IMG/VR virus record: IMGVR_UViG_3300028840_008153
Span: 99,143-163,142 of that record
DNA length: 64,000 bases
Reading direction: 5' to 3' (one strand)
Origin: a virus
Lineage: Duplodnaviria; Heunggongvirae; Uroviricota; Caudoviricetes
The notes under the pieces are model-generated. The model ran no database searches. It saw only the letters and a list, made by a program, of their open reading frames with translations, and was not told where the DNA came from. Every line of letters begins with the position of its first letter. Position 1 is the stretch's first letter. Below are positions 830-59,783 of this stretch, piece after piece. The translations under genes were made by a program, and so were the position numbers.

Positions 830-967
830 GAGATTGCTCCTGAGTTGCCGGGAGGATATCAGTACACCCGATAATGATAGAGCAAATCTATGAGAGCGTC
901 AATGCGCATTCACGAAGAAAAGCCCGCGCGGGGCGGGCTTCCTTGTGAAGTGAAACGGCGTTGAGAA

Positions 968-1240
968 TCAGGCGCTTGAGGACGACCCGACGCCCAGCTC
1001 TTCCTTGACGCGCGTCTCGACGTCCTCCATCGAGATCGTGCCGTTCAGATCGTCGTAGGCCGCGCCTTCGTAGATGGTGAGCGGCTGCGGCATCTCCCTC
1101 ACGAACGCCCTGATGAGTTTGCGCTGCGGCAGGCACACGACGCGTGTGACCGTGACGGAGCTGAGGTTTCGCACCTGCTGCTGGCGGACCACGATGTCCG
1201 CGCCGCCGGGAATATCGATTTGGCCATTGTTCGAAGCCAT
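968..1240 (-). CDS. Hypothetical protein (90 aa)
   Basis: ORF with AAGGAG RBS directly upstream of the ATG; lies between the tail-fibre gene and the sulfotransferase. Confidence 0.45.
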   Translation of the reverse strand: MASNNGQIDIPGGADIVVRQQQVRNLSSVTVTRVVCLPQRKLIRAFVREMPQPLTIYEGAAYDDLNGTISMEDVETRVKEELGVGSSSSA

Positions 1241-1256
1241 GGTTCTTCTCCTTACG

Positions 1257-4055: not shown

Positions 4056-4068
4056 GGAAGTATCTCCG

Positions 4069-4347
4069 TCAATCCGGCGCTTCAGTACCGTCCGTTGCGA
4101 TGACCCTGATCGAATCCGTTGGCGGAGCCGGCGTCAGCGTCAACCGTATGCTCGTGCTGTTGGGCGTCTGCTTCTCCATCTGGAAGGCCACGACATCGTT
4201 CGAGGACTGAAGCAGATCCAGACACCGCACACAGACATCCTCGGTGGAGAAGCCCAGATCGAGATCGAAGACCGTGTTGATGCCGTCTCCGATAGTCTGA
4301 TCCACTTTCGCCATTGCTTCTCTCCCGATTTCGGAACTGATTCCCAA
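4069..4347 (-). CDS. Small tail-fibre-associated structural protein (92 aa)
   Basis: Shares a DG(I/T)xTVF(D/V)(L/I)DxGF N-terminal motif and a (I/T)(R/T)LTLTPAP C-terminal motif with the adjacent 4363..4827 gene; paralogous pair immediately upstream of the fibre gene. Confidence 0.5.
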
Positions 4348-4362
4348 ATGCCTCGCCGCGCG

Positions 4363-4827
4363 TTATGGCGGGAAGACAAACGCGGCAACCCGTCCTGTTG
4401 CGGGCGCCGGAGTCAGCGTCAACGTGATCTGCGTTGGGCCCGGAGAAGCCAAGTCCTTGTCGAAGAAGAAGATGGGCCCGCCGCCGAAGTTGTCGAACAG
4501 GTAAACCTGCGCGTTTTCCGTCGCAAAGCCCGCGTCGATCACGAACACCGTGCTGGTGCCGTCGCCGAGCGTGGTCGTGAAGTAGTCACCGCCTGACCCG
4601 CCGCCACCAAAGCCTGTGGTCGTGACCAGAATCCGGTTGGTGAGCAGATCGTGGATGTATTCGTCGTGAATCTCCTTCAGCGCCGCCAGGTAAAGCTCCG
4701 TCTCCAGCGCGCCGGGAACCACGATGCTCTCATTGGTGTTGACGATCATGCCGTTGGGCGGGATGTACGGAAGGCGCCTGGTCTCTACCAGGTTCTTGAC
4801 CCGCGTCAGCATTCGCTCGTTGGGCAT
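4363..4827 (-). CDS. Small tail-fibre-associated structural protein (154 aa), paralogue of 4069..4347
   Basis: Track ORF begins at TTG 4833; the ATG at 4827 has a perfect AGGAGG RBS 6 nt upstream. GGGGSGG linker; C-terminal ITLTLTPAPATG motif. Confidence 0.5.
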   Translation of the reverse strand: MPNERMLTRVKNLVETRRLPYIPPNGMIVNTNESIVVPGALETELYLAALKEIHDEYIHDLLTNRILVTTTGFGGGGSGGDYFTTTLGDGTSTVFVIDAGFATENAQVYLFDNFGGGPIFFFDKDLASPGPTQITLTLTPAPATGRVAAFVFPP

Positions 4828-4956
4828 CGTCAACCTCCTGTGAACATGAATCTAGCCGCCACGATGACGAATGCAATAGCTCCCAGCAGCAGAAGCAGCA
4901 TGCCGAGCGCCAGTAGGATGATCAGCGCCCCGTTCGTGTTGCCTTCCTTGTTCACC

Positions 4957-5904
4957 TCAGTCTTCCATGGGCAGCGGATACGTTTCCCCGTCCTCGGCTA
5001 TCTCCGCCGGCCCTGTTGGCCCGGGCTCGTGCGTAGGCCGGGGCGGAGCGTTGTCGGGCGCGCCGGCCTTGCCGGGTATCGGACTCAGGAAAGGCTCATC
5101 CGCCCTGCGGCCCTCGGCCTGCGGACGCTGAGTGTAGCCTAAGGAAGCCAATCTGTCACGCGTCAGCTTCACCACTTCCTTCAGCGGCTTCGACAGATTC
5201 CCCGGCGTCTTCAGCGTCTCCAGAAAGTAGTGGGTCAGGGCTCCGCACGGGCGCCCGTTCACGTACGTGTCCGCGCTTGTCTGGTTGCTTTTGCAGCCAC
5301 TTACGAACCCCACCTCTAATCGCCCACACACGACCGCCCGGGGAGCGGGAGCTATGGATCGACTCAGACATGTGCGCTTCCTCCACTCGATGTCCACGGG
5401 CGTCGGGTACATCCTGGGGATCATGTCAGGCGCGTTGGGTACGGGCATGGCTCGGGTCAGATCGCCTGAGTGGCAGGAGTCGTTGACCCACGAGAAGAAG
5501 CAGCCCTTCGGGATGCGGCCGAACATGCGCACGAAGTCCTTGTCCGTGAGCATGTGGTTGAGGTCCCACTGAAAGTCAACGGGACACACGGCTTCGAGCA
5601 TTCCGTCGATCTCGTGGGCGTAGTCACGTGTTGGATACTGCACGCCATGGCCGGAGAAGTGGAAGAACACGCGAGCGCCCTTCCTCACCTTGACCAGCCA
5701 GTCGATGCGCTCCTTGATGGCCTGCGTGGTAGCTCGTTCGTCCACGAGCAGACGGATGTTCTCGGGGCTGAACCCGAAGACCTCCACCAGGGCCTCAGCC
5801 ATGTCGGAGACGTCGTTGACGCAGCCGGCCAGCGGAGCACCGGGGTAGCGATTGATCCCTACGAGGAGGGCTTTTTCTTCTCGTCTGAGTCCTTTGTCGC
5901 ACAT
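4957..5904 (-). CDS. Caspase-like peptidase (C14 family; metacaspase/orthocaspase-like)
   Basis: ALLVGINRYPGAPLAGCVNDV...FFHFSGHG (catalytic His) ... WVNDSCHSG (catalytic Cys): canonical caspase His-Cys dyad context. Confidence 0.65.
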   Translation of the reverse strand: MCDKGLRREEKALLVGINRYPGAPLAGCVNDVSDMAEALVEVFGFSPENIRLLVDERATTQAIKERIDWLVKVRKGARVFFHFSGHGVQYPTRDYAHEIDGMLEAVCPVDFQWDLNHMLTDKDFVRMFGRIPKGCFFSWVNDSCHSGDLTRAMPVPNAPDMIPRMYPTPVDIEWRKRTCLSRSIAPAPRAVVCGRLEVGFVSGCKSNQTSADTYVNGRPCGALTHYFLETLKTPGNLSKPLKEVVKLTRDRLASLGYTQRPQAEGRRADEPFLSPIPGKAGAPDNAPPRPTHEPGPTGPAEIAEDGETYPLPMED

Positions 5905-8900
5905 GACAGTTTTCTCCGTAGTGCTCGTTTCCTAAGAATAGCACCTGACTTGGCCAACGGGTAGTCATGATGCAGCGAGATGAAAGCCGGGTTGCGGTAT
6001 GCGCCGCTGGGGAACTTCTCCATGGCGGAGATGCGTGCCAGGCGCCCCTTCCAGTCCTCAGCCTCGTCCATCATCTGCCTGCGGGTGGCGTCGTCGAAGC
6101 CACCGCCCACCTTGCCCACGATCGGGCCCGTTGGGCTGAGACTGTAGTCAAAGCCGCCAGCGGCACCCTCGTACTTGCCCTTACCTGGGAAGACGTTCTG
6201 AATCCAGACATCATGCTCGGGCCGTGGCTTGACCTTGATCGCGCGTCCGGGCCTGGCAGCGGGCCACGCCACGACGCCCTCGTAGGTTGCGGGGTGTTCG
6301 CCGGACACGATGCGCTCATAGAGGGCCTTCTGCTCTTCAGGCGTCCGTGCGGTCTCAGGCAGCCGGAACTGACGATCCGGCAGGTGCTTCATCAGCTCCT
6401 GCAGCTTCTGCATGCGCTCCTCGCCGGTCAGCGTGCCGGGCTCAATCGGCGTCTTGCCCCAGCGCACCACGTCGAAGAGCATGTTCCTCATCTGGACATT
6501 CTGTGCCTTCTGCTTCTCCAGCGAGTTGGATAGCGCTGCGTTGAGTATGCCGCCCAGCTCCTGTACCGGTACTGCCTTGCCTTCACGTTCCCCGTACACC
6601 TCGCCACGGACGATCGTCCCTTGTAACTCCTTGGGAATATCGACCTTCGCCCCGCCAGGACCGAAGATCTTGTAGGTATAAAGGATCGGCCGTCCCGTCT
6701 TGGAGATTCGGTAGGAGAGGGCTTCGATTCGATCACCCAAGAGATGATACAGCGCGCTGGCGCCATCCACTTTCTCCTGAATCATGTAGTTGGGGTCAAA
6801 CAGCTTCTCCACCTTGTCGGCGGGCACCACGCCATACTTCAGCTTCTTGATGCCCACCTCTTCAGGCTTTCCCTTGAGCAGCTTGGCCGCGCTCACCGGC
6901 GTGGTGTTGATCATCAGCCACGCGCCGCCCTGCTGCTTGCGCTGACGGGCGCCTGCCGCGCTCGGCGGCCCGGACATGCGCACCATCGTGTAGAACTCAG
7001 GGAAGCGTTTGTGCGTGACCACGAACTGGATCTTGTCGCGTTCGGCCTTGGTCACGATGACCGAGCCGTAATCATGCTTCTTGACCGTGCCCTTGCCGTA
7101 GCCTTCCTCGATGTTGCCCTCGAACTCAGCGTACTGCCCACGATGAAGCGGCTGCTGGTAGAGCATGATCTTCTTACCAGGCTCGGGCAGCTCCTTGCGT
7201 GTGGCCCACGAGTAGAGCGAAGGCTCTCCGCCTTCCCTGCCCAACCTGACGTCGTAGTGGGGGCCGGCCTTCTGCGCCAGATGACGCTGCACGACCCATT
7301 TGAGGACCTCGCCGTGAGGGATCTGCCTGGGATCGCCAAAGCGTTTGGGATCGGGCAGGCCCGGAGCATAGTCCGCTTCGCCCTTCTTCAGTAGCTTGTA
7401 ACCTCCATAACTGGCAACAGGAACGCCAACCGCAGCCAGTGCGGTGAGCAGCTTGTTGCGCCGTATGGCGCCCAAGAGCCCCTGCTGCTTCTTCCAGTGG
7501 CCGTGCAACAACCTCTCGGCAAGCTCGGTATTCTCGGGTGTTAGGCCGTGCCCCGCGCGTTCGGCGAACTCTCGCAGACTCGCCACGCTCTTGCGCGCAA
7601 ACTCTGGATCACCCTCGGGCACATCAAAAAGCGCCAAAAGCGGCGCTATTCGGCCGGCCACGTCTTTCTGGCTGGAAGGGATCTGCAGCCCAACCTGTTT
7701 CCCCTTGGAGAAAAGCTCTGTGCCAAGGGGCACGTCCGTCAGCTTGCTCTTCTTCCAGTTGGCAAGATCCATGTCGGCGACTGCCTCGCCATATATCTGA
7801 CCGCGCGGGTCATTTCCACGGAAGAACTCCTTACCCATCTGGTAGAAGTCAGGCTCGACGTTTGTGAGATGCTGCGCCTTGAAGTAAGGCAGAGCCGCTT
7901 TCTTCTCGATTGTTGGTAATCCTGTGATCTTCTCAGCCAATTCCCATAGGAAATCCTGAGACTTTGGTAATTCCGTGTCATCCCATAGCAGCTCTGCGGC
8001 CTTTCTTATCTCCAGACCACGATTGGCCTCTTCGCTCGACTCCTTGAGCACTTCGAGGAACTGCGTGATGAGCTGCTGTTTGGTCTCGGAGAGGTTGGAC
8101 ATGTACTGGTCGGCGCCCGTGTCCTTCTCCACCATGCCCCAGCGTTGCATTAAGCCCCGCTTGGGGTTGGAGAAGTAGCGTCTGACCTTCACAACACGCT
8201 CTTCTTCAGGCAGGTGAGCGTGGCTTCCGTGCCGGACCGCTCGCCCTGTCATCTGATCGAGCCTGGACTGGTTCCAGTGCGGCTCCATAAGCTGCATGAG
8301 CTTGGTGCCTTTGAGGTCCAAACCCTCCGAGCCGGCGCCTGATACCAGTAAGATCTTCACATTGCCGGAGTTGTAATCCTCCACGATCTCACGGCGCTCG
8401 CTGTCCTTCAATCCGCCCGTGAACACGTGATGTGGAACGCCCTTCTTCTCCAACGCCTCGGCCAGCGGTAAGATACCGGATTGCAGGTAGTTGGAGTACA
8501 CCACGGCCTTGAAGTTGGGATCGCTCTCCAGCCCCTTGTAAAGGTCGCCCAGCATGCGCCTTAGCTTGGGAGAGTGCGCAACCGCCGAGCCCTTCATCGT
8601 CTCGTCGAAGGGCATGGGATTGTTGGACAGCTGGCGCACGGCCGAGAGGAATGCGTTGAGCTGGGCGGACTCGGCTTTGCTGGGTGGCAGGTTCTTCTTC
8701 ACCTTGTAGGCCAGCCCGACGTCCTCATTGAGGAACGCCTCATACATCGCCGTCTGCTCAGGCGTCATCTCGACTTCGATGTCTTCCTCTTCGACACGTG
8801 GGAAGTCGCCTTCGAGCGGATGGTAGTCAACACGGCCCTTGACGAGCCGTTTCAGCTCCTGCTGGTTCCTAAGGCGCTCCACCATTCCGGGCTTAACGCC

Positions 8901-9497
8901 GTGCCAAGTCTTCTGCCACCACGTGGGCCTTACCTCTACATTCTCCACGAACTTGTCACGGAAGGATTTATGAGATCCAGGCGGGTTTCGCCCCTGTGCC
9001 AGCACCTTGAGCATGGGCACGAACTCACTGGGATCGTTGCGCACGGGCGTGCCGGTGAGGAACATGACCTTGCCGTGGGCCTTTGTCGGGAGCTTGCTGA
9101 CTTTCGTGCCTGGCCGACCCATCCGATGTGCCTCATCGAAGACGGTTAGACCGGCCTGTGGCAAACCTTTGCTCACAGCCTTGTTATAAGACCGCACATC
9201 GTAGTCTGGTGCGCCCTCTGGCTGGTCGGTGAACTTCGACAGCTCCTTGCGGTAGTTCTCACGAAGCGCAGCAGGCACCACAACTGCTTTGGGGCCCTCG
9301 GTTTGCTCGCCTGCGGCGATGCTGGAGAGCGTCTTGCCCGATCCCAAGGCGTGATAGGCCAGAAGTGCAGGCTGTTGCTCCATCTTGGCAACAACACGCT
9401 CCTGCTGAGGCTGCATTTCCACCTCAGGCTTCAATGCGGCCTTCTTGGCTCTCTGCTTGGCGATCTTGATCAGGCCCATTTCGGAACCCATTCCCAA
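5859..9497 (-). CDS. SNF2-family helicase fused to a LigD-like 3'-phosphoesterase plus ATP-dependent ligase (nucleotidyltransferase) domain
   Basis: 1212 aa. N-terminus: GSGKT (motif I), DEAHR (II), LTGTPVRND (III), QMTGRAVRHGSH (VI). Middle: HYDVRLGREGGEPSLYSWATRKELP (LigD phosphoesterase HYDLR...SWAVPKG signature). C-terminus: KVDG (ligase motif I), YEGVVAW (IV), AIKVKPRP (V). Confidence 0.7.
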   Translation of the reverse strand: MGMGSEMGLIKIAKQRAKKAALKPEVEMQPQQERVVAKMEQQPALLAYHALGSGKTLSSIAAGEQTEGPKAVVVPAALRENYRKELSKFTDQPEGAPDYDVRSYNKAVSKGLPQAGLTVFDEAHRMGRPGTKVSKLPTKAHGKVMFLTGTPVRNDPSEFVPMLKVLAQGRNPPGSHKSFRDKFVENVEVRPTWWQKTWHGVKPGMVERLRNQQELKRLVKGRVDYHPLEGDFPRVEEEDIEVEMTPEQTAMYEAFLNEDVGLAYKVKKNLPPSKAESAQLNAFLSAVRQLSNNPMPFDETMKGSAVAHSPKLRRMLGDLYKGLESDPNFKAVVYSNYLQSGILPLAEALEKKGVPHHVFTGGLKDSERREIVEDYNSGNVKILLVSGAGSEGLDLKGTKLMQLMEPHWNQSRLDQMTGRAVRHGSHAHLPEEERVVKVRRYFSNPKRGLMQRWGMVEKDTGADQYMSNLSETKQQLITQFLEVLKESSEEANRGLEIRKAAELLWDDTELPKSQDFLWELAEKITGLPTIEKKAALPYFKAQHLTNVEPDFYQMGKEFFRGNDPRGQIYGEAVADMDLANWKKSKLTDVPLGTELFSKGKQVGLQIPSSQKDVAGRIAPLLALFDVPEGDPEFARKSVASLREFAERAGHGLTPENTELAERLLHGHWKKQQGLLGAIRRNKLLTALAAVGVPVASYGGYKLLKKGEADYAPGLPDPKRFGDPRQIPHGEVLKWVVQRHLAQKAGPHYDVRLGREGGEPSLYSWATRKELPEPGKKIMLYQQPLHRGQYAEFEGNIEEGYGKGTVKKHDYGSVIVTKAERDKIQFVVTHKRFPEFYTMVRMSGPPSAAGARQRKQQGGAWLMINTTPVSAAKLLKGKPEEVGIKKLKYGVVPADKVEKLFDPNYMIQEKVDGASALYHLLGDRIEALSYRISKTGRPILYTYKIFGPGGAKVDIPKELQGTIVRGEVYGEREGKAVPVQELGGILNAALSNSLEKQKAQNVQMRNMLFDVVRWGKTPIEPGTLTGEERMQKLQELMKHLPDRQFRLPETARTPEEQKALYERIVSGEHPATYEGVVAWPAARPGRAIKVKPRPEHDVWIQNVFPGKGKYEGAAGGFDYSLSPTGPIVGKVGGGFDDATRRQMMDEAEDWKGRLARISAMEKFPSGAYRNPAFISLHHDYPLAKSGAILRKRALRRKLSCATKDSDEKKKPSS

Positions 9498-18362: not shown

Positions 18363-18661
18363 GCCGTAAGCGGGTCCTCTTCTGCGGGAGTCGCCTGCAC
18401 GGGAGGGGCGTCACCCTGTTCGATGGGCGGCACCACGCGGGCCGAGCGGTCCTGAAGCTGGGGCTTGCCCGTCTTGCCGCTGACCTTCAGGATACTGACG
18501 CCGTGCGTCAGGCCGTCCTTGTTCAGCGTCTGGAGAACGCCCGCCGTGGCCTCATTGCCCTTGCCGTAGAAGATCAGGTCCAGCTCAAGGACACGCGCCT
18601 TGCCGTCAAACTTGACGTTCTCCACCTCTAGATCGGAAGGTAGAGTCAGTTTCATCTTCAT
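18359..18661 (-). CDS. Hypothetical protein (100 aa)
   Basis: ORF with ATGA-type overlap to the downstream gene. Confidence 0.4.
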   Translation of the reverse strand: MKMKLTLPSDLEVENVKFDGKARVLELDLIFYGKGNEATAGVLQTLNKDGLTHGVSILKVSGKTGKPQLQDRSARVVPPIEQGDAPPVQATPAEEDPLTA

Positions 18662-19604
18662 GCCTTTGCATCTCCATTAACGCCTCTTCCTCGATGACCG
18701 CATGAACGCCGGCCTGATCGTAAGCACAGGCGCCGCATGCGTTGGCAAAGCGCAGGGCCGGTACAAGGTCCTCCCCGCCCGCCAGTTTGAAAGCCAGTCC
18801 CGCCAGGAACGAATCGCCGCAGCCCGTGGGATCGCCCATCTCCCGGGCGCGTACGGGGATGCTGTAGCGCTGGTCGTAGAACCAGCCGTCCCCGTCCTTG
18901 TGCCAGTAGCCGTAGCAGCCGCGCGCCCCGGCGGTAACCACTACCAGGCGGGACAGCGCCCCGCCCGGCGCCGGGGTCCTTGCGCCGTGTACGCCACCGG
19001 CAGCGTGGAACTCACTCATGTTGGGCGTGAGAATGTCCACGTCGCCGTAGCGGGAGAAGTCCTTGCCCTTGGGGTCCACGATCACGCCCCACTCGCAGGT
19101 GCGGTGTTCGCACGCCCGCAGCCGGGACATCAACTGGGACGTCACGATGCCCTTGCCGTAATCGGAGACCACGATCATGTCCACCTTCGGGCCTTTCTCG
19201 ATCTCCTTGAGAAAGATGTCCACCTCTTCGGGCTCGGCGTTCTGCAGTCTTTCCTGGTCCACACGAACGATATGACGCCCCCGCTTCGTGAGGTAGCGGG
19301 TCTTCATGGTGGTCTGGCGCCGGTTCCGTTTCACGAAAACGACCTCGGTGTCGGGCGCGCGGGTGATCTTCTGGCTGAGCGTTCCGGCCTCTTCATCCGT
19401 GCCCGTGGCACTGAGCAGCAGCACGCGCGCTCCGAGCGACACGAGGTTGTTGGCCACGTTCGCAGCGCCGCCGGCCTTCATCTCCGTTCCAATGGGACGG
19501 ATCTTCAGGGCGGTTTCGTCCTCCGGGGAGATGCCGACCACCTCGCATGTCACGTGGCGGTCGAGCATCACATCCCCGACAACGACTACGAACGGGCGGT
19601 GCAT
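18606..19604 (-). CDS. D-glycero-beta-D-manno-heptose-7-phosphate kinase-like (PfkB family, RfaE/HldE domain I)
   Basis: Real start MHRPFVVVVGDVMLDRHV...ISPEDE...GGAANVANNLVSLGA... matches the HldE kinase-domain N-terminus. C-terminal DPTGCGDSF is the PfkB anion hole. The upstream 120 codons of track ORF 18606..19964 are Arg-rich read-through. TGATG overlap with the upstream gene. Confidence 0.7.
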   Translation of the reverse strand: MHRPFVVVVGDVMLDRHVTCEVVGISPEDETALKIRPIGTEMKAGGAANVANNLVSLGARVLLLSATGTDEEAGTLSQKITRAPDTEVVFVKRNRRQTTMKTRYLTKRGRHIVRVDQERLQNAEPEEVDIFLKEIEKGPKVDMIVVSDYGKGIVTSQLMSRLRACEHRTCEWGVIVDPKGKDFSRYGDVDILTPNMSEFHAAGGVHGARTPAPGGALSRLVVVTAGARGCYGYWHKDGDGWFYDQRYSIPVRAREMGDPTGCGDSFLAGLAFKLAGGEDLVPALRFANACGACAYDQAGVHAVIEEEALMEMQRHEDETDSTFRSRGGERQV

Positions 19605-20206
19605 CACATGTTCTCCACGATCCCCAGCGCGGCGTTGCCCAGCACCTGAACCTCCTCCTCGGGAGGCATCACCTCGAACTCCACGTACCGGCTGAGCTGC
19701 TCGACGTTCTTGGTCGTGGCGTTCATGTTCTTCGGGCGCATCAGTCCCTTCATGCCGGAGACGGTGAACACGTCCAGCGCCTCGGCCACGGCCATGTTCT
19801 TGGACTGCAGGGCCAGCGGGTCCAGCACGGGCACCAGCCAGTGCCGCGTCACGTAGAAGCGGCGCTTGGCCCGGTTGCAGAACTGCTGGGCGTGCATCCA
19901 CTGCCTGAACCAGGGAAAGCTCTCGCTGTCCATGATGTTCAGGACGAAGTTCCACACGTTGCACTGGCCAATCACGGGCTCCTCGAAGTAGACGTGTATC
20001 CCACGCGTCTCCTTGGGCTTGCCCTTCATGTGGTCCTCGGCCCCGAAGGCACGCATGAGATCCGTGTTAACCTCCGCGTACTCGTAGACGGGGCCCAAGG
20101 CGAAGAGAACGTAGCCGTCCCGACGGAGTTCCTCCATCGAGGCGGCTGCGTCCGTCTTGGGGTCCTTGAGTGGACTGAAATCAGAAGGAAGTTCGGGTCC
20201 GTCCAT
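19604..20206 (-). CDS. Hypothetical protein (about 200 aa)
   Basis: Trimmed to the MMDGPELPSDF start that overlaps the upstream stop. Confidence 0.4.
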   Translation of the reverse strand: MDGPELPSDFSPLKDPKTDAAASMEELRRDGYVLFALGPVYEYAEVNTDLMRAFGAEDHMKGKPKETRGIHVYFEEPVIGQCNVWNFVLNIMDSESFPWFRQWMHAQQFCNRAKRRFYVTRHWLVPVLDPLALQSKNMAVAEALDVFTVSGMKGLMRPKNMNATTKNVEQLSRYVEFEVMPPEEEVQVLGNAALGIVENM

Positions 20207-34023: not shown

Positions 34024-34327
34024 TCTGTAGCTCCCTTATCTGAGATTCCGAGTGCCTGCGGACCGCCGAGCGCACCATGGAGGTGGGCACCATGAACTTG
34101 CGTGCCAGCCAGCGAATGACTTCGTGCGCGTGACGATTCGTCAAAAACAGCTCCCGGCGGCTAATTGGGAGCTTTCCGTCTCGCCCGTCGGGCCCGGTCA
34201 GAAACAGCTCGTCGAAGTAATCGCAAAGCTCGTGATACTCCCGAGCCATCATCTCCAGCCGTCGCACCTCCTCATCCGGCACGCAGGGCGCGTTGAGGTA
34301 CATCGCGTAGAAGTCATCGTCGGTCAT
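33929..34327 (-). CDS. Hypothetical protein (about 132 aa)
   Basis: Trimmed to MTDDDFYAMYLNAPCVPDEEV. Confidence 0.35.
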   Translation of the reverse strand: MTDDDFYAMYLNAPCVPDEEVRRLEMMAREYHELCDYFDELFLTGPDGRDGKLPISRRELFLTNRHAHEVIRWLARKFMVPTSMVRSAVRRHSESQIRELQNADPRSLPGTLQKGFEETAGRTFDADRQRAL

Positions 34328-34488
34328 GACTCCTCCTCCATGTACTGCTTGAGCCACTGGCGGTAAGACTGCACGCCGTACACGAGAAGCGCCACGAAAG
34401 CGAGCGGGACGCCAACCATCCACTCCAAAAAACCGTCCGGGTCGAAAAGCCAGAACAGAAGCAGAAACACTCCCGCAAGAATCAGCAT
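34324..34488 (-). CDS. Small membrane protein (54 aa), paralogue of 38608..38727
   Basis: MLILAGVFLLLFWLF...LLVYGVQSYRQWLKQYMEEES; its C-terminus aligns with LIHYGIKWYKRWLDKYIEE of the 39-aa protein beyond array 2. Confidence 0.4.
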   Translation of the reverse strand: MLILAGVFLLLFWLFDPDGFLEWMVGVPLAFVALLVYGVQSYRQWLKQYMEEES

Positions 34489-34591
34489 CGTAGCCTCTCT
34501 CCCATAGCTAACGAAAAACGAAGCACTGCCCGGCACCGAAGTGCCGGGCAGCGCGCCCAAGTTCACAAGTAAGGACGCCGCCTTCTGGCAA

Positions 34592-35210
34592 GGCCCACCC
34601 GCAAGCGCGTGGAGGCACCGTCCGTATCCGATCGATCTCAGAATCGATCACCGGCTCACCCGCAAGCGCGTGGAGGGGCCCTCGGGATCGCTGCGATGCA
34701 GCGGCCCACCCGCAAGCGCGTAGAGGTACCTACTCGGCCATGGCTGACGCGAATTCCTCTGAGGGCCCACCCGCAAGCGCGTGGAGGTACCTTGAGGGGG
34801 GGGCTGTCCTCACGGCCATCACGTACGACCCACCCGCAAGCGCGTGGAGGTACCCTGGTGCTGAAGTGGGTCGGAACTCCCACCCGCAAGCGCGTGGAGG
34901 TACCCTGGTGCTGAAGTGGGTCGGAACTCGGGACACGGGCCCACCCGCAAGCGCGTGGAGGTACCGGGCTATATTTTTTTTCAGACGGTGAAGTAGCACG
35001 GCCCACCCGCAAGCGCGTGGAGGTACCCAGATGTCTCCCCACTCGTAAGTGTGAGGCTCCGGCCCACCCGCAAGCGCGTGGAGGTACCGCTCTCAGTCCA
35101 GATCAGCCCACTATTCTTGGGGGCCCACCCGCAAGCGCGTGGAGGTACCACTTCTGTGGCGCCGGTTTTGGCTTTTGGGATGGGCCCACCCGCAAGCGCG
35201 TGGAGGTACC
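34592..35210. CRISPR. CRISPR-like array 1: 11 repeats of 28 nt (GGCCCACCCGCAAGCGCGTGGAGGTACC), spacers mostly 33 nt
   Basis: Repeat starts read directly at 34592, 34653, 34703, 34764, 34826, 34876, 34937, 35000, 35061, 35122 and 35183. The two leftmost repeats are degenerate, so the trailer is at the low-coordinate end. The repeat can fold as CCAC-CCGC-AAGC-GCG-TGG. Spacers are unique except spacer 5, a 22-nt prefix copy of spacer 6. Confidence 0.8.
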
Positions 35211-35320
35211 TCTATGACAAAATGACATGGTTTGGGTGGTCAGCTCATGGAGCTTGGTGATTACTGGAGCAGTCCCTCCAGCCTGGCGCTCACCCCGGGC
35301 GCGAAGCCATGCCATTGGTA
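35211..35320. other. Leader-like flank shared by both arrays (copy 1)
   Basis: About 85 nt, GGTCAGCTCATGGAGCTTGGTGATTACTGGAGCAGTCCCTCCAGCCTGGCGCTCACCCCGGGCGC, is nearly identical at 38463..38540. It contains the hairpin CTGGAG-cagtcc-CTCCAG. Confidence 0.5.
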
Positions 35321-35321
35321 A

Positions 35322-36044
35322 TCAACTGAACTTCTTGATGATCTTCGCCAGCTCTTTCACGCTGGTGCGAACCACCTGACGCATGTTGTGTCCTACACAC
35401 TCCGCCAGAAGATACCTTGCATCGTTCGGGTCCTCCAGGACGTTGATGATGCGAAGATACTTCGGCTGCCGCGTCTTGGGACGCCGCTCATGGGGAGGGA
35501 TCTCTCCCCGTTCGGGACGGTCATAGTCGAAGATCACCTTGGCCTCTTCGGCTGTGACCTTGCTGAAGTTCTTCTCGACGGCCGTGTTCTTCTTGATCAC
35601 GACTGTCGTGGCGTCGGCATTGATGCGCTTCTGCGTTTCTTCGGGCAGCCTCAGGAAAAGATCCGTGGTCACCCATTCCTTCTCGAACGCGACCTTGCTC
35701 ATCACGCCCGCGCCGTACGCGTGGATCTTGGTGAAAAGGCCGTACGAAATGCCAGAACCAGCAACCACTTCGTTGTAGAACTCCTCCACCTGGTGGTCGG
35801 CGAGCTGGCCGATCTTCTTCTTGTGTTTCAGAAGCACCTTGCGCATGCCGGCTTTGTAGGCGACCTTGAGCTTCTCGATCTCCTTGCCGACAGCCTCGCA
35901 CAGCTTCTCAAACTCAGCCTCAGGAAGACCGGAGCCCCCCAGTCCCGGAGGAATTCGTCGAGGGGGCTTGCATGCTGGACTAATCCGTGCCATCCGTTGC
36001 CTCCTTTTTCCTTTTTCCGTAGCTGCTGACAGAGTCCACGACAT
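35322..36044 (-). CDS. Uncharacterised protein (240 aa, or 223 aa from the alternative start at 35993) encoded between the two arrays
   Basis: The alternative start MARISPACKPP (ATG 35993) has an AAGGAGG RBS at 7 nt spacing and overlaps the 575-aa gene's stop by 14 nt. No recognisable family; a Gly-rich segment VVAGSGISYGLFTKIHAYGAG. Confidence 0.5.
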   Translation of the reverse strand: MSWTLSAATEKGKRRQRMARISPACKPPRRIPPGLGGSGLPEAEFEKLCEAVGKEIEKLKVAYKAGMRKVLLKHKKKIGQLADHQVEEFYNEVVAGSGISYGLFTKIHAYGAGVMSKVAFEKEWVTTDLFLRLPEETQKRINADATTVVIKKNTAVEKNFSKVTAEEAKVIFDYDRPERGEIPPHERRPKTRQPKYLRIINVLEDPNDARYLLAECVGHNMRQVVRTSVKELAKIIKKFS

Positions 36045-37707
36045 CCGTGGAAATCTCCTTCATCAGATCCTGCAGCTTGACCAAACGCTGCTCTTCCCCT
36101 TCGGCAACCTCCTTCCGTTTGAGCTTGATCTGGGCCTCCTCTTCTTCCTCCGACAGGTTTCGGGCCTTGATTTCATCGACGGCGTCGGCCGTCTTTTTCT
36201 TCTTTTCCTCCTTCCACGTGCAGGGCCCGCTGTACGCGATGTAGAATTTCCGGCAGCGCTGGTGCAAGGCTTCATCAAAGAAGGCCCACTGGAAAGGCTC
36301 GATGCCTTCCAGTCGCTCCTCAGGCGTGTTTGGCCCGGGAAGCGCGAACAGGCTGAGGTTGCCGCAGGCCCAAGGCTTCAGCCTTCTTACGATGTTCCGC
36401 GCCAAAATCCTGATTTCCTGCTCCACCACCTTCGCCCTGCGGACGGATAGGTCCTGCAACTGCGCTCGCCATTTGGTTGCTGCCCGGCTGCGTCCATCGA
36501 CGGACTGTATGAGGTCCTTCAGCTTGTTCTTTCTCTGCCGAAGGTCCTTCAACCGGCGAACCGTGTTGTTCAGCGGAATGTGGTACATGCGCCACTTGTC
36601 CGCCTTTTCCTTGGCGCGCGTCTTCTTCTCGACAGCGACGTGCACGAGGAAGTCCAGCCCCTCATACTTGTTCTCGCCGGGAACCTCCTTGATGTACACG
36701 TACGCGCTGCGCTTGTGCTTCTGGGCCTGCCGTTGAACGGGGGGCCGAACGTAGGACACGTCCAAGAAGAGCCGGTCTTTTCGATCCAGCCGCAAGCAGG
36801 CGCACTGGTACTCCCAAGCAAGTTGCTCGACGACCTTGACCTTGCCGGTCTTCTTGTTCTTCTGCAGCTTCGGAGCCGGCTGCGGCATGAAGTGGTTGAA
36901 CACGCTGGCGGAGACGTCATCCAGCTTTTTCACCTCCGTCTTCGTCTTCCCGTTCTGCCCCATTTCAAACGGTCCTTTTGTGAGCAACCGAATGGGCGTG
37001 TCCGTGTGTGGCTCGATATTGAGTGAGAACCCCCACTTCTCCAGAATGCCGTCTTCATCGTCCTCCTCACGCTCCTTGAAGGGAACGAACTCCCGCCGGG
37101 TCTCATAACCCATGATCTTCAGCGTCGAGTGCTCCATCAAAGGAAGCGCCCTTTCCATGGAGACATGAAGAATGTCCCTGGAAATGCCCCTGCGCGGGTC
37201 CTTCGTCGTGAGCGCCGCCTTCACGTCTGAGCGCATGCAGTCCCAAACGGAAGCCTTGAAGCGGAAGGGATGATGCTTGTCGTGAGCGAATTCCTCCATC
37301 ATGGCCGCCCACTCGCCGTGAAGGCCGTAGTAGGTCACGTTGGGGTTGAAGTCCGTCCCCCGCGTCACGAGCGCCAGGAACTGCTCGATCCGCTCCCTGT
37401 CAAGCTCCGCGCGAATGTCACCGTCCTTCGTGAAGTGAAGTCTGCCCCCTAAACGAAGGCAGGCACCCCCGATGTCCACGAGCCGCTGGAGCATGAAACG
37501 GTAAGCCTGCAACATCCTGATGACCCGTTGTCTCTCCTCGAAGGTCTCGCAAACGACCCTGAAGGAGTGGCAGCACTGAAGCCAATCTTCCTGGCCGGGT
37601 TTGTTCAACGCGCCCGGCTTCCGGCCGTCGCCTCGAACCCCGCGCTTCCCTTTTTTCTTGGTCTTCTTCTTGGTTTTCTCTGCGGCCTTTTTCAGTAGCA
37701 CGGCCAT
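35980..37707 (-). CDS. Uncharacterised 575-aa basic protein between the arrays; candidate nucleic-acid-binding effector
   Basis: Real ATG at 37707 (MAVLLKKAAEKTKKKTKKKGKRG...) with AAAGGAGG RBS; the track ORF starts at GTG 37734. Lys-rich N-terminus, scattered Cys clusters (QCAC, WACGN, CRK...GPC), and a C-terminal TADAVDEIKARNL that weakly resembles a RuvC-III (DADxNAAxNI) motif. Confidence 0.6.
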   Translation of the reverse strand: MAVLLKKAAEKTKKKTKKKGKRGVRGDGRKPGALNKPGQEDWLQCCHSFRVVCETFEERQRVIRMLQAYRFMLQRLVDIGGACLRLGGRLHFTKDGDIRAELDRERIEQFLALVTRGTDFNPNVTYYGLHGEWAAMMEEFAHDKHHPFRFKASVWDCMRSDVKAALTTKDPRRGISRDILHVSMERALPLMEHSTLKIMGYETRREFVPFKEREEDDEDGILEKWGFSLNIEPHTDTPIRLLTKGPFEMGQNGKTKTEVKKLDDVSASVFNHFMPQPAPKLQKNKKTGKVKVVEQLAWEYQCACLRLDRKDRLFLDVSYVRPPVQRQAQKHKRSAYVYIKEVPGENKYEGLDFLVHVAVEKKTRAKEKADKWRMYHIPLNNTVRRLKDLRQRKNKLKDLIQSVDGRSRAATKWRAQLQDLSVRRAKVVEQEIRILARNIVRRLKPWACGNLSLFALPGPNTPEERLEGIEPFQWAFFDEALHQRCRKFYIAYSGPCTWKEEKKKKTADAVDEIKARNLSEEEEEAQIKLKRKEVAEGEEQRLVKLQDLMKEISTDVVDSVSSYGKRKKEATDGTD

Positions 37708-37818
37708 GTGGCCTCCTTTCAAAGCGCCTCCCACGGGAGGCTCAGGTCATGGACCCTGACGATTGCCGGAGCTTCCGGCATAACGCTCGCCCTAAGCGCA
37801 AACACGAATGACGAGATC

Positions 37819-38462
37819 GGCCCATCCCCACACGTATGGGGCAGCCTCAAAATCAAAGCGGTAAACTGCCGTCCCCATCGGCCCACCCCCAACTGAAAAA
37901 GGAGAACGGAACGGGTCCATCCCTACGCGTATGGGGCAGCCGCCAGCAACATCCTGCGCCACAGCCCTTGACTCGGCCCATCCCTACGCGTATGAGGCAG
38001 CCGCATGGAAATGCGTGGGCAAGTTGACGGATGAGGGCCCATCCCCACTGACACCATCTCAGACGCGCTGCGGCCCATCCCCATGCGCGTGGGGCAGTCG
38101 CGCAACTGCCGAACTGCTGAATCTACGTAGCGGGCCCATCCCGCGTGTATGGGGAAGCCTGGGACCGCGCTGAAGACCCGGCTACCGGGCGGGCCCATCC
38201 CCACGCGTACGGGGCAGCCCCCCCCTCGGGCAGTATCCGTGCTCCTCGGTCCACGGCCCATCCCCGCGCGTATGGGGCAGCCAACGAGGTACTGCTGGGG
38301 CAGGTGCAGGCCCTGGGCCCATCTCCACGCGTATAGGGCAGCGGCACAGACAATGGGAGGATAGCCATGAAAGAGGGCCCATCCCCACGCGTATGGGCAG
38401 CCCGGACATACTCGCAGACCGCAGGATGCACGCCGGGCCCATAAGCCAATATGACACAGGTG
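37819..38462. CRISPR. CRISPR-like array 2: about 10 degenerate repeats of 28 nt (GGCCCATCCCCACGCGTATGGGGCAGCC), spacers 32-36 nt
   Basis: Repeat starts at 37819, 37914, 37975, 38072, 38133, 38192, 38255, 38316 and 38375. Heavily mutated units sit at 37880 and 38036, with a truncated remnant at 38435. Repeat hairpin is CCCCA-cgcgta-TGGGG. It shares the 5' GGCCCAYCC with the array-1 repeat. The array looks decaying, with 1-3 mismatches per repeat. Confidence 0.7.
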
Positions 38463-38540
38463 GGGATGGTCAGCTCATGGAGCTTGGTGATTACTGGAGC
38501 AGTCCCTCCAGCCTGGCGCTCACCCCGGGCGCAAAACCGT
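38463..38540. other. Leader-like flank shared by both arrays (copy 2)
   Basis: Near-identical to 35228..35315. Confidence 0.5.
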
Positions 38541-38607
38541 GTCATAGAAATTGGCTGTACTTTATTTTAACGCAAACGCGCGGAGAAATTAGGGGGCGCC
38601 GGTAGGG

Positions 38608-38727
38608 TTATTCCTCTATGTACTTGTCGAGCCAGCGCTTGTACCACTTGATGCCGTAGTGGATGAGGGCAACAAGCCCGATTCCTGAGAGCAACACCAG
38701 CGTGGCCATGCCTGCAACGGTAATCAT
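38608..38727 (-). CDS. Small membrane protein (39 aa), paralogue of 34324..34488
   Basis: MITVAGMATLVLLSGIGLVALIHYGIKWYKRWLDKYIEE; AGGAGG RBS 5 nt upstream. Not in the track (under 60 aa). Confidence 0.45.
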   Translation of the reverse strand: MITVAGMATLVLLSGIGLVALIHYGIKWYKRWLDKYIEE

Positions 38728-38736
38728 CGCATCCTC

Positions 38737-54198: not shown

Positions 54199-54225
54199 AG
54201 ATGTATTCCCAGCAGGCATACGGCC
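54199..54225 (-). promoter_or_regulatory. Copy of the dispersed promoter-like motif
   Basis: AGATGTATTCCCAGCAGGCATACGGCC; about 75 nt upstream (minus sense) of the RG-rich ORF RBS. Confidence 0.3.
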
Positions 54226-57475: not shown

Positions 57476-57939
57476 GGAGGCCCTCGGAAAGTTTGATCGT
57501 CAAAGAGTGGAGAGAAACGTGGTTTCTTCATTCATGGAGAAGATGTATTCCCTCCGGGCATACGATCAATACGCTGGCCGTCAAAAGGTAAGGAGAAACG
57601 GTTTCTTTTCCGAAAAAAGATGTATTCCCCTTGGGCATACGGCAATGTTGGTGAGCCGGCAAAAGATTGCTGAGACACATTTTGTCGGATGTAGTCCCGT
57701 AGCGGCATCCGGCTCGATCTCAAAGCGGGCCATCAAAAGACAGAGAGACTATTTTTACCGCTCCCGGAGCCTCCCGTCTAATGGGAGGAGGTGGAGTCGA
57801 ACCACCCGGTTCTTTTTATCAGAAAGATGTAATCCCTCCAGGCATATGGCCCTTTTTCAGGTTTGGTGGCCGGCAAAAGAACGCTGAGACGGGACATTTT
57901 GCAGATGTAGTCCCAGCAGGCATCCGGCCGATTTCAGTT
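57476..57939 (-). ncRNA. Repeat-rich non-coding region next to rsr; candidate Y-RNA-like (YrlA-type) RNA gene(s)
   Basis: No credible ORF. Five copies of an about 27-nt motif. Two 62-nt imperfect-palindrome hairpin elements (57651..57717 and 57866..57930). A tRNA-like T-arm plus acceptor fragment (GGTGG-TTCGACT-CCACC, 57745..57815). Immediately downstream of a Ro60 gene and a tRNA. Confidence 0.35.
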
Positions 57940-58016
57940 TGGTAGCGGGGGCAGGACTTGAACCTGCGACCTCCGGGTTATGAGCCCGACGAGCTGCCTA
58001 ACTGCTCCACCCCGCA
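57940..58016 (-). tRNA. tRNA-Met (anticodon CAT), initiator-type
   Basis: Minus-strand sequence TGCGGGGTGGAGCAGTTAGGCAGCTCGTCGGGCTCATAACCCGGAGGTCGCAGGTTCAAGTCCTGCCCCCGCTACCA. It has three G-C pairs at the base of the anticodon stem, an A11:U24 pair and an unpaired 1:72 position (U·U), with CCA encoded. About 85% identical to E. coli tRNA-fMet. Confidence 0.85.
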
Positions 58017-58058: not shown

Positions 58059-59783
58059 TCAAACCTCCACCGCCTCGATTTCGCCAACCCACTTCGCCGG
58101 GCTCAACCCATCCTTGGCGAACATGGAAACGACGTCGAACACGGTGTCCGAGAACCCGCCGACCTGCAGGATGCTGGGATCGCCAGCGCCCTTCACCTGC
58201 GTGGTCGAGTACGGCGTGATGTCGAGACACACCAGCTTCGCCTGCTTGTTGTGGCGTTTGAACCTCTGCCACGCCTTCTGAAGCTCGGTGCCGCGCCGGC
58301 CGCCATACGGGTGGGTACTGTCAATCCAGCTCTCGTAGTCCGAGACCAGGATCACGGTGTCCGCCGGGATGTTGTTGTCGTTGAGGTGATTCACCGTCAA
58401 CGAACAGTTCGTCCCGCCCGAAGGCAGCTCCGACAGGATGCGGGCGTTTGTCATGACCGTATCCCGTGGGTTGAGCCTTGGGTACTCGGACATGGTCGTC
58501 TGGTTGCCAAAGTAGTAGGCGCGCTGCTGCACGCGCCGACCGGGGAGCGCAAGATGATCACTGAACGGGATCACCTGGGCTTCCGGGTTCTTGCGCAAGA
58601 TCGCCGCCGCCATCAACGCCGCCACGTGGACACAGCTCGTCTTCGTGGAGTGGCCTCTCGGCCCCCGGCTCTGAGTGACCGGGCTGTGCATGCTCCCTGA
58701 GATATCAGGGAACACGAACACTCGGCCCTCGATTGCCGGCACGTTCTCGATGGCGACTTCCATCGCCTGTTCAAGCGCGGCCTGAACGGACTGCGGGATC
58801 TCCGGGTTGAGGTTCAGGTAGGCGGTCAGCAACTGGTACGGAAACTGACGGGCCTTCGTGATCTCTTCCCGGTTCTGCAGCCGATTCTCGACCTTCTGGC
58901 GCAGCTCCGCGTTTCCCAACACCCCGTACTTCAGGAAGTTGTTGAGGTTCATGCGCGTGAACTGCCACCTGCCGTTCCGGGCCAGGATCTTCCATTCGGC
59001 CTCGCCGATGCCGACGCCGTCGAGCATCTGGAAGGGCACATCGGGGATCGTCACGTCCTTCACGCCCGCCTTGTGCGCGGTCTTCCAGTTCTCGTATTCC
59101 TTCACCATCTCCGGCAGCTTGTCCGGCTCGTACCGGCGCGTGACCTTCTTGCCCGTAGCGGCAGGCTCCACGCGCTCCTTCCAACCGTCTGGGCCGACCG
59201 GGTCGAAACCCAACAGGTAGCCAAACAGCGCCTCCTTCTGAGGCGTGTTTGGGCTTGGGTGGGCAAGCCGGATCACATCCACGAGAGACGGATCGTTGCC
59301 GACCGAGCCCCGGAAGATGGTCTCCGGGCGGGTGCGATCGAACCAGCGCTGGATCGAGCGCCGCTGCGAAGAAGCCAGCGACTTGCGCCCGAAGACGCCC
59401 GAGCGGACGAACTGCGCGAAGTTGCGCAGCATCTTCGCGTTGTCGATCACCCGATCGAACACCTTGTCGGCCAGGTCACGAGGAGCCTTGCCCAGCGAGA
59501 GGCTCGCCGCCAGGAAGGCCGGCATGTCCTTCATGAGCCCCTTCTCACGGGCGTAGATGGCCAGCTTGGCGATGAACATGTCGTCGACATGCGCGAGCGT
59601 CGACTTGACCGTGTCCAGTTGCCCCTTGGCGGAGACGTAATACGTGTCACCGAAGCATCCGGTGACCGCGTACTGCGCCAAAAGCTCCTTGGGGCCCCGG
59701 CTGTACGCCCGGCCTCCGGCCTCGTTGACGGCATCCGTTTCCGGTGCCTGAGTGTGCGTGCTGAAAAGGCTTTTGTTAGCCAT
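58059..59783 (-). CDS. rsr: Ro60/Rsr orthologue (TROVE plus VWA domains)
   Basis: N-terminal TROVE (…GGRAYSRGPKELLAQYAVTGCFGDTYY…) and C-terminal VWA with the MIDAS motif VFVFPDISGSMHSP; GGGGAGGG RBS. Confidence 0.8.
   Translation of the reverse strand: MANKSLFSTHTQAPETDAVNEAGGRAYSRGPKELLAQYAVTGCFGDTYYVSAKGQLDTVKSTLAHVDDMFIAKLAIYAREKGLMKDMPAFLAASLSLGKAPRDLADKVFDRVIDNAKMLRNFAQFVRSGVFGRKSLASSQRRSIQRWFDRTRPETIFRGSVGNDPSLVDVIRLAHPSPNTPQKEALFGYLLGFDPVGPDGWKERVEPAATGKKVTRRYEPDKLPEMVKEYENWKTAHKAGVKDVTIPDVPFQMLDGVGIGEAEWKILARNGRWQFTRMNLNNFLKYGVLGNAELRQKVENRLQNREEITKARQFPYQLLTAYLNLNPEIPQSVQAALEQAMEVAIENVPAIEGRVFVFPDISGSMHSPVTQSRGPRGHSTKTSCVHVAALMAAAILRKNPEAQVIPFSDHLALPGRRVQQRAYYFGNQTTMSEYPRLNPRDTVMTNARILSELPSGGTNCSLTVNHLNDNNIPADTVILVSDYESWIDSTHPYGGRRGTELQKAWQRFKRHNKQAKLVCLDITPYSTTQVKGAGDPSILQVGGFSDTVFDVVSMFAKDGLSPAKWVGEIEAVEV

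Follow-up and report, generated by a model that had tools for sequence, protein, structure and literature searches.

Nuclease-dead relatives of Cas12 and TnpB act as programmable transcription factors (TldR and the sigma-E-associated dCas12f) or as silencers (Cas12m and Cas12c), and in each of these cases it was the nature of the linked partner that defined the new biology. Dead Cas12 effectors as such are already known, and RuvC has been lost many times among the type V systems of CRISPR (short palindromic repeats that are clustered and regularly interspaced). In Cas12m (V-M), Cas12c (V-C) and Cas12k (V-K), which are often found on mobile elements, RuvC is unable to cleave double-stranded DNA, and interference or targeting proceeds through binding that is guided by the CRISPR RNA (crRNA) (PMC12669027, PMC11656645); V-O and V-P are predicted to be further binding-only members of type V. 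A cluster of dCas12f proteins associated with CRISPR arrays has also been mentioned (PMC13472631), and the hypercompact phage nucleases CasPhi (Cas12j), Cas-lambda (Cas12l) and Cas12p with host TrxA are likewise among the nearest known systems. Here we describe a stretch of 64,000 nucleotides (nt) from a tailed virus (positions 99,143 to 163,142 of IMG/VR record IMGVR_UViG_3300028840_008153; the whole stretch is called the window) that carries a cassette of two CRISPR arrays and two genes, one for a 575-amino-acid (aa) protein, the effector, and one for a 223-aa protein, the partner.

We read this cassette as a phage-borne, type V-F-derived CRISPR system in which the Cas12f homologue would bind DNA under crRNA guidance without cutting it, a reading to which we assign a probability of roughly 0.6. 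With Cas12f (AsCas12f, Un1Cas12f1, SpCas12f1 and CnCas12f1) it shares the best profile and fold matches, small size, CRISPR arrays and possibly an RNA resembling trans-activating CRISPR RNA (tracrRNA). It differs from Cas12f in that the effector, at about 10% identity, lacks the RuvC-I Asp, the RuvC-II Glu, the TNB zinc finger and RuvC-III, and in having an obligatory protein partner and type I-E rather than V-F adaptation genes. The repeats of the window family are 28-29 nt and the spacers 32 nt, whereas Cas12f loci have longer repeats. The likeness to the sigma-E-associated dCas12f consists of RuvC loss with C-terminal truncation, a tightly linked small partner gene and a probable structured RNA upstream of arrays (PMC13472631; PDB 9n9c and 9n9m). 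However, the operonic rpoE of that lineage has no counterpart here, as no partner matches sigma-70 in Pfam, NCBIfam, PHROGs or PADLOC; long CRISPR arrays take the place of its single stand-alone guide RNAs; and it lies on Bacteroidota chromosomes, whereas the window family is found mostly on phages. Cas12m, Cas12c and Cas12k are other Cas12 lineages, most of which keep a full-length RuvC/TNB with substitutions rather than a truncation, and none has a partner of the window type. The novelty lies in the combination: a divergent and very rare branch of Cas12f, carried mostly by large phages, has an obligatory partner without known relative, arrays and adaptation genes of I-E type, and twin arrays of which each has a structured flank to itself; this combination is not described in PMC13472631, PMC10691335, PMC12669027 or PMC11656645.

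Assignment of the effector to the Cas12f/TnpB lineage

Searched alone, the 575-aa protein had no match in Pfam, NCBIfam, PHROGs, PADLOC or PDB, and the query itself was all that a word-indexed search of 5.8 billion proteins recovered. Single-sequence searches with the window proteins gave no relatives in viral contigs, and a single-sequence AlphaFold model of the effector was unusable, with a predicted local distance difference test score (pLDDT) of 40. When 1.84 billion cluster representatives were searched exhaustively with HMMER, 11 distant relatives emerged at 23-29% identity; the lineage is thus very rare (12 representatives in 1.84 billion). It is mostly phage-borne. The profile built from this family matched 12 Cas12f/TnpB chains in PDB with expect values (E) from 3.6e-11 to 7.7e-5. 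The best of these were SpCas12f1 (9i8y, E = 3.6e-11), CnCas12f1 (8hr5, 2.4e-10) and AsCas12f (about 1e-9), while the natural nuclease-deactivated Cas12f 9n9c was matched at E = 1.8e-5. In addition, the PADLOC Cas12u3 and Cas12f models matched 8 of the 12 family members (E down to 1.2e-14).

The fold pointed in the same direction. AlphaFold2 with the family alignment gave an effector model of mean pLDDT 77, and the AlphaFold and Foldseek comparison that the earlier note on this DNA had suggested recovered a Cas12f/TnpB-type fold with the WED-REC-RuvC arrangement. The best Foldseek matches were all Cas12f, dCas12f or TnpB (E = 1.9e-10 and weaker), with 9n9c second-best, and the matches to other lineages were weaker (Cas12m2, E about 7e-6; Cas12k, 5e-5). 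Among viral predicted structures, the only matches were TnpB-like proteins at 12% identity or less, and no relative of the effector is encoded in deposited phage genomes. A conserved block, NHxWA..I...A..W.CG.I, corresponds to the Cas12f helix and strand leading into RuvC-II. From these profile and model data the 575-aa protein is assigned to the Cas12f/TnpB lineage as a very divergent member. The earlier note, which was made from the sequence alone, had seen no recognisable cas genes in the cassette, and this did not survive the profile and fold comparisons; the protein had gone unrecognised because its divergence puts it beyond the reach of single-sequence searches of Pfam, NCBIfam, PADLOC and PHROG.

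The catalytic columns were placed from HMMER alignments, by the Asp in IMGIDLG and the Glu in IQMEDL of Cas12f. The 12 members carry Y, F, Y, M, S, V, H, T, A, S, T and C at the RuvC-I Asp column and F, P, Y, Y, Y, Y, Y, Y, K, Y, a gap and F at the RuvC-II Glu column, so that an acidic residue is found at neither position in any of them, and the RuvC-III segment is missing. Most members have just 21-46 residues beyond the last RuvC strand, which leaves no room for the TNB zinc-finger domain and the third RuvC motif; in the window effector, an 84-residue charged helical tail without CxxC pairs stands in place of TNB. With both RuvC catalytic positions and the C-terminal domain lost, the effector is predicted to be nuclease-dead. 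RuvC loss of the same kind has been reported for the sigma-E-associated dCas12f lineage (PMC13472631, PMC10691335). The inactivation appears to have been independent of that lineage, since the family profile scores better against active Cas12f1 than against 9n9c, a comparison of scores rather than a phylogeny. The suggestion that the protein is a compact effector like CasPhi and Cas-lambda therefore stands as to a single effector but not as to a new nuclease, as the RuvC positions are lost.

The partner protein

The second gene had been given as encoding 223 or 240 aa. It is present, and is better read as 223 aa because AAGGAGG lies 6 nt 5' of the corresponding ATG and independent gene callers agree on this start. 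In related loci a gene of 213-267 aa occupies the same position, directly after the effector or after one intervening array, and it is present in every related locus with sufficient flanking sequence. These are L007 and L016 (contigs of 5 kb each), L010 (548 kb), L011 (233 kb), L012 (2.7 kb), L013 (groundwater metagenome, beside AbiEii/DUF6088 and a DNA methylase), L017 (phage-like context) and a sister contig of L008, whose 239-aa gene is counted by position and not by homology. The partners are homologous to one another (BLASTP E = 2e-16; hhalign probability 98.9%), and the earlier view of this protein as an accessory factor is supported by its conservation beside the effector across related loci. 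No homologue of the partner was found in Pfam, NCBIfam, PHROGs, PADLOC or PDB, and the Cas6, Cas6e and Cas6f profiles of Pfam, NCBIfam and PADLOC had no match among seven partners.

Two candidate identities were rejected. A profile match to a cytochrome c555 trimer (E = 2.3e-8) was deemed compositional: it is confined to the helical N-terminus rich in Ala and Lys, three tandem copies within that chain raise its score, and a CxxCH motif is not conserved among the partners. The idea of a truncated Cas12f paralogue standing in for the second protomer had an hhalign probability of 0.03%. A role in guided transposition, as in CRISPR-associated transposons, was set aside, since neither the two cassette genes nor those few neighbours that have an annotation gave a match to a transposase family.

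Two alternatives turn on what the partner does. It may be an output module for RNA-guided recruitment, for example binding RNA polymerase to activate or redirect transcription, or engaging another host machine. The partner is linked to the effector as tightly as rpoE is to dCas12f, the two genes overlapping by 14 nt; the effector is truncated C-terminally as in the sigma-E-associated dCas12f (PMC13472631); and the absence of an invariant catalytic-type residue from the partner alignment would suit an adaptor. However, sigma-70 region 2/4 and helix-turn-helix families were unmatched in seven partners even at E <= 5, the long arrays of diverse 32-nt spacers resemble immunity or competition rather than regulation of a fixed gene, and there are no target matches in which promoter proximity could be seen. 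Recruitment is conceivable but unlikely on these data. It is improbable that the system still cuts nucleic acid, either through the partner as an unrecognised nuclease acting in trans or through a rearranged effector active site. TnpB relatives with a rearranged RuvC site are on record (PMC10691335), accessory nucleases occur in class 2 systems (PMC12669027) and the partner matches no solved structure, but Met1 is the sole invariant residue of the partner alignment, which holds no conserved Asp, Glu or His motif and so argues against an enzyme. The uniform loss of acidic residues from the two RuvC columns and the deletion of the third motif oppose cleavage by the effector itself.

Arrays and related loci

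All elements listed in the earlier note, namely the two arrays with their common flank, the two minus-strand genes and the pair of small membrane proteins, were confirmed in the sequence (Table 1), and its description of a compact CRISPR-associated module on a phage holds. The paralogy claimed for the membrane proteins was borne out at their C-termini (46% identity over 24 aa, E = 2e-8).

Table 1. Features of the cassette in the window (position 1 is the first nucleotide of the window)
Feature	Position	Strand	Description
Membrane protein, 54 aa	34324..34488	-	Paralogue of the 39-aa protein; downstream cassette edge
Intrinsic terminator	34523..34554	-	14-bp stem with 11 G-C pairs and T-rich tail, just beyond the last repeat of array 1
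CRISPR array 1	34592..35210	-	11 copies of GGCCCACCCGCAAGCGCGTGGAGGTACC (plus-strand reading), about 10 spacers; gene-strand repeat GGTACCTCCACGCGCTTGCGGGTGGGCC
Flank element copy 2	35213..35318	-	Between the partner stop codon and array 1
Partner, 223 aa	35322..35993	-	Overlaps the effector gene by 14 nt; homologues in related loci
Effector, 575 aa	35980..37707	-	Predicted nuclease-dead Cas12f-like protein; basic disordered N-terminus, WED/REC/RuvC-like core, charged helical C-terminal tail
Flank element copy 3, divergent	37717..37815	-	After the final repeat of array 2, ahead of the effector Shine-Dalgarno/ATG
CRISPR array 2	37819..38442	-	About 9 degenerate copies of GGCCCATCCCCACGCGTATGGGGCAGCC (plus-strand reading), 11 spacers; gene-strand repeat GGCTGCCCCATACGCGTGGGGATGGGCC
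Flank element copy 1	38442..38548	-	Directly upstream of array 2; covariance model E = 1.3e-36 (training sequence)
Membrane protein, 39 aa, single-pass	38608..38727	-	Open reading frame called as a gene in independent assemblies; upstream cassette edge (gene orientation)

Repeats in array 1 are mostly spaced by 61 nt, and one of the 11 copies is truncated. Those beside the flank are uniform, and variants bearing substitutions lie at the far end. The uniform repeats adjoining the flank and the strong terminator that follows array 1 both fit transcription of the arrays on the gene strand from the flank. Array 2 holds two internally truncated repeats, and its first repeat is reduced to a 7-nt remnant, ATGGGCC. 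The geometry had been described as I-E/I-F-like with 28-nt repeats and spacers of about 33 nt. The I-E type is upheld, while the repeat/spacer boundary is uncertain by 1 nt, and a division into 29 + 32 nt, which all related loci show, is no worse a fit than 28 + 33. The gene-orientation repeats of the related loci also read like I-E repeats (GTC.A.CCC...GGG...), and the arrays are of type I-E style geometry (29 + 32 nt).

Five assemblies made independently, among them a contig of 198 kb, contain the window locus with identical spacers. The sole difference lies in array 1, where positions 34829-34928 hold an exact 50-nt tandem duplication of a truncated repeat and part of a spacer. This duplication is missing from the 198-kb assembly in ENA, and therefore reflects either an assembly difference or a population variant.

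In the arrays of every related locus, hairpin repeats of 28-29 nt alternate with spacers of 32 nt at a period of 60-61 nt. In addition to the window, arrays are present in L007-L013, L016 and L017, with 3 to 12 repeats per array; twin arrays occur in the window, L010, L012, L016 and L017, and in the window, L010 and L016 each of the two is preceded by a similar non-coding element. The effector-partner-array module is conserved across about 10 independent and highly diverged loci. Directly upstream of the effector in L011, and in L011 only, lie genes for Cas1e (E = 1.7e-112, above the curated cut-off) and for an unannotated Cas2e that overlaps the end of cas1e (E = 1.9e-15 to E. coli Cas2). In this family, then, an effector derived from type V is combined with arrays of type I-E and, in at least one case, with adaptation genes of that type as well. 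Downstream of the L011 array, positions 4244-4417 encode part of a protein similar to Cas2e in its C-terminal two-thirds (52% identity over 62 aa with the intact copy at 910-1218), which suggests that an I-E cas2-array junction was once rearranged or duplicated.

Two other loci showed features of their own. In L013, on groundwater contigs, the module (624-6340) lies beside AbiEii/DUF6088, a NADAR protein and a cytosine DNA methylase, a context that looks like a defence island or plasmid rather than a phage. The effector-family member of L017 (P0006, 352 aa; 5409-7059) is without the N-terminal 135 or so residues of the family alignment, and immediately upstream (5409-5870) is a 153-aa open reading frame, so that a split gene or a wrongly called start is possible.

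The I-E character of the arrays suggests another explanation, in which they serve a type I-E Cascade of the host and the dead Cas12f with its partner is either an anti-CRISPR that captures I-E-type crRNAs or unrelated. Repeat length, hairpin, 32-nt spacers, 61-nt period and orientation are all I-E-like, Cas1e-Cas2e adjoins the module in L011, and a phage dCas9 has been proposed to sequester crRNAs via a phage tracrRNA (PMC11656645). The two cassette genes matched none of Cas8e, Cse2, Cas7, Cas5, Cas6e (Cascade) or Cas3, the rest of the window having been scanned in part. In contrast to the I-E repeat of E. coli, whose 3' end is ATAAACCG, the repeats of the window family have G-rich 3' ends. 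Against the Cascade reading, effector, partner and arrays occur together in about 10 loci at 20-29% protein identity with quite different repeats, which implies co-evolution of effector and repeat; the flank anti-repeats described below co-vary with the local repeat; and the exact window repeat was not found in 185,579 species genomes, nor by exact scan in metagenome contigs. We consider the use of a host Cascade quite unlikely, and the related proposal that these are orphan arrays exploiting host Cas proteins is weakened by the joint travel of the three components.

Structured element upstream of the arrays

The flank common to both arrays extends over 87 nt at 92% identity (35229-35315 and 38459-38545) and lies upstream of each array on the minus, or gene, strand, that is, on its high-coordinate side. 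It had been taken for a leader. The same flank is indeed found at both arrays, but it is more than a leader, being part of a structured element of about 105 nt that is present in three copies in the window. The third copy was detected with a covariance model built from the window's two flanks (copies 1 and 2), at 39.6 bits and E = 7.6e-9, and its hairpins are preserved through compensatory changes; in the other loci this model matched no copies. Within-locus comparison of flank pairs gave 27 predicted base pairs with two compensatory changes for the window (86% identity), 35 with four for L010 (65% identity) and 36 with two for L016 (86% identity). Altogether, 98 predicted pairs included eight compensatory changes and none was broken.

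The flank of array 2 holds a 10-nt anti-repeat, CCATCCCCAC, complementary to positions 16-25 of repeat 2 (GTGGGGATGG; shuffle p = 0.0005). The sole internal difference between the two main flank copies is at the site of this anti-repeat, where the array-1 flank reads CCACCC, the complement of GGGTGG in repeat 1. Anti-repeats of 9-10 nt are present at array 2 of the window and in L007, L008 and L012 (p = 0.0005-0.012); the latter three (p about 0.01 each) have theirs 38-45 nt upstream of the arrays and in every case complementary to the 3' half of the repeat. Computed energies of flank-repeat RNA duplexes did not tell cognate from non-cognate pairs, because the sequence is GC-rich, and an Rfam scan of the cassette gave no match. 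The element is probably an RNA, and a predicted tracrRNA-like scaffold is its best reading. Covarying putative guide RNAs have likewise been reported upstream of the CRISPR loci of array-associated dCas12f homologues (PMC13472631).

Proposed function

In the mechanism that we propose, both arrays would be transcribed on the minus strand from a start within the structured flank that precedes each of them. The flank would serve as a tracrRNA-like scaffold or as a structured 5' leader, its anti-repeat pairing with the 3' half of the repeat, and the repeat-spacer units would guide the 575-aa protein, as dead Cas12f, to complementary DNA. Binding without cleavage has precedents within type V in Cas12m, Cas12c and dCas12f (PMC12669027, PMC13472631). 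The effect could come from binding alone, a roadblock as described for Cas12m and Cas12c (PMC12669027, PMC11656645), or from the 223-aa partner once recruited to the bound site. The likeliest outcome would be that a competing mobile element or host genes are silenced at the level of transcription or replication. Spacers would be added by type I-E Cas1-Cas2, which is encoded at the locus in L011 and otherwise presumably borrowed from the host.

Several observations weigh against binding under crRNA guidance. The 20 spacers of the window and 43 of its relatives had no match in the window, in the related loci or in 50,697 phage records, and the 20 window spacers had none in 72,556 plasmids, so that the comparison with phage and plasmid sequences proposed in the earlier note yielded no target. 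A match to a Brucella phage at E = 0.5 is at chance level. A few spacers scanned individually for exact matches in viral, metagenome and genome contigs also gave nothing, a weak negative because these collections are without even the source contig. With no target found, there is no protospacer-adjacent motif and no hint of what is silenced. The loss of catalysis is deduced from an alignment and a model, and the partner might, though this is improbable, be a hidden nuclease or RNase. As for the scaffold, the anti-repeat is only 6-7 nt in four arrays (array 1 of the window, both of L010 and that of L011), the 6 nt at array 1 not being significant; the window flank alone folds no better than shuffles (z = -0.81); and two-sequence consensus folds are biased toward structures that both sequences can form. 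For these three reasons the tracrRNA-like role is put forward only as the best reading.

Finally, the window encodes neither cas1 nor cas2, and the identity of the spacers across the five assemblies gives no sign of ongoing acquisition. Together with the degenerate and truncated repeats of array 2 and the loss of its first repeat, this would fit a decaying, non-functional CRISPR remnant. Yet both reading frames are intact with strong ribosome-binding sites, the repeats of array 1 are uniform, compensatory changes preserve the structure of the flank, and the two-gene module has been kept over very deep divergence. Because conservation is so deep, a remnant is hardly credible, and crRNA-guided binding by a dead Cas12f remains our preferred reading.

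What the cassette would mean depends on the partner. If transcription is only blocked, it would represent one further independent RuvC loss in type V, of moderate interest. If the partner carries the output activity, the phage would have a new route to act on the genomes of hosts or competitors, and the two proteins (about 575 + 223 aa) would form a compact scaffold for programmable DNA targeting. More tentatively, and with doubts that we think prevail, the cassette could be a new RNA-guided machine in which dead Cas12f delivers an unrelated and so far unclassifiable partner of 220-240 aa to DNA sites chosen by spacers that were acquired adaptively, and by which large phages reprogram host transcription or disable rivals. 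Such a machine would be a chimera of a type V effector with arrays and adaptation genes of type I-E, with a tracrRNA-like scaffold for each array, and would merit a subtype of its own within type V, with an output activity not known before.

Phage context and minor observations

The source element is a large tailed phage. The genes of the window are nearly all on a single strand, and among the neighbours of the cassette is a 623-aa protein similar to the portal protein of 180-187-kb phages (Salmonella phage Arash and Vibrio phage D181; E down to 4e-65). A collagen-repeat tail-fibre gene (1257-4055 and 3727-3935) contains nested tandem repeats of 9, 18, 36 and 45 nt. On the minus strand, positions 5859-9497 encode a 1212-aa fusion of a SNF2-type helicase, a LigD 3'-phosphoesterase domain and an ATP-dependent DNA ligase, and positions 18606-19964 a PfkB-family carbohydrate kinase (E = 2e-29) amid phage genes, possibly an auxiliary metabolic gene.

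Further along the window are a tRNA-Met (57943-58016) and a Ro60/TROVE-vWA gene (58059-59783). The motif ATGCC-N(4-5)-G(G/A)A(A/C/T)TACATC occurs six times (0 expected), on the minus strand of 57542-57923 and at 54200-54219, and five of the six copies cluster directly after the Ro60 gene and the tRNA-Met. Rfam recognises only the tRNA here, and the cluster resembles tandem Y-RNA-like (YrlA-type) RNAs beside a phage Ro60.

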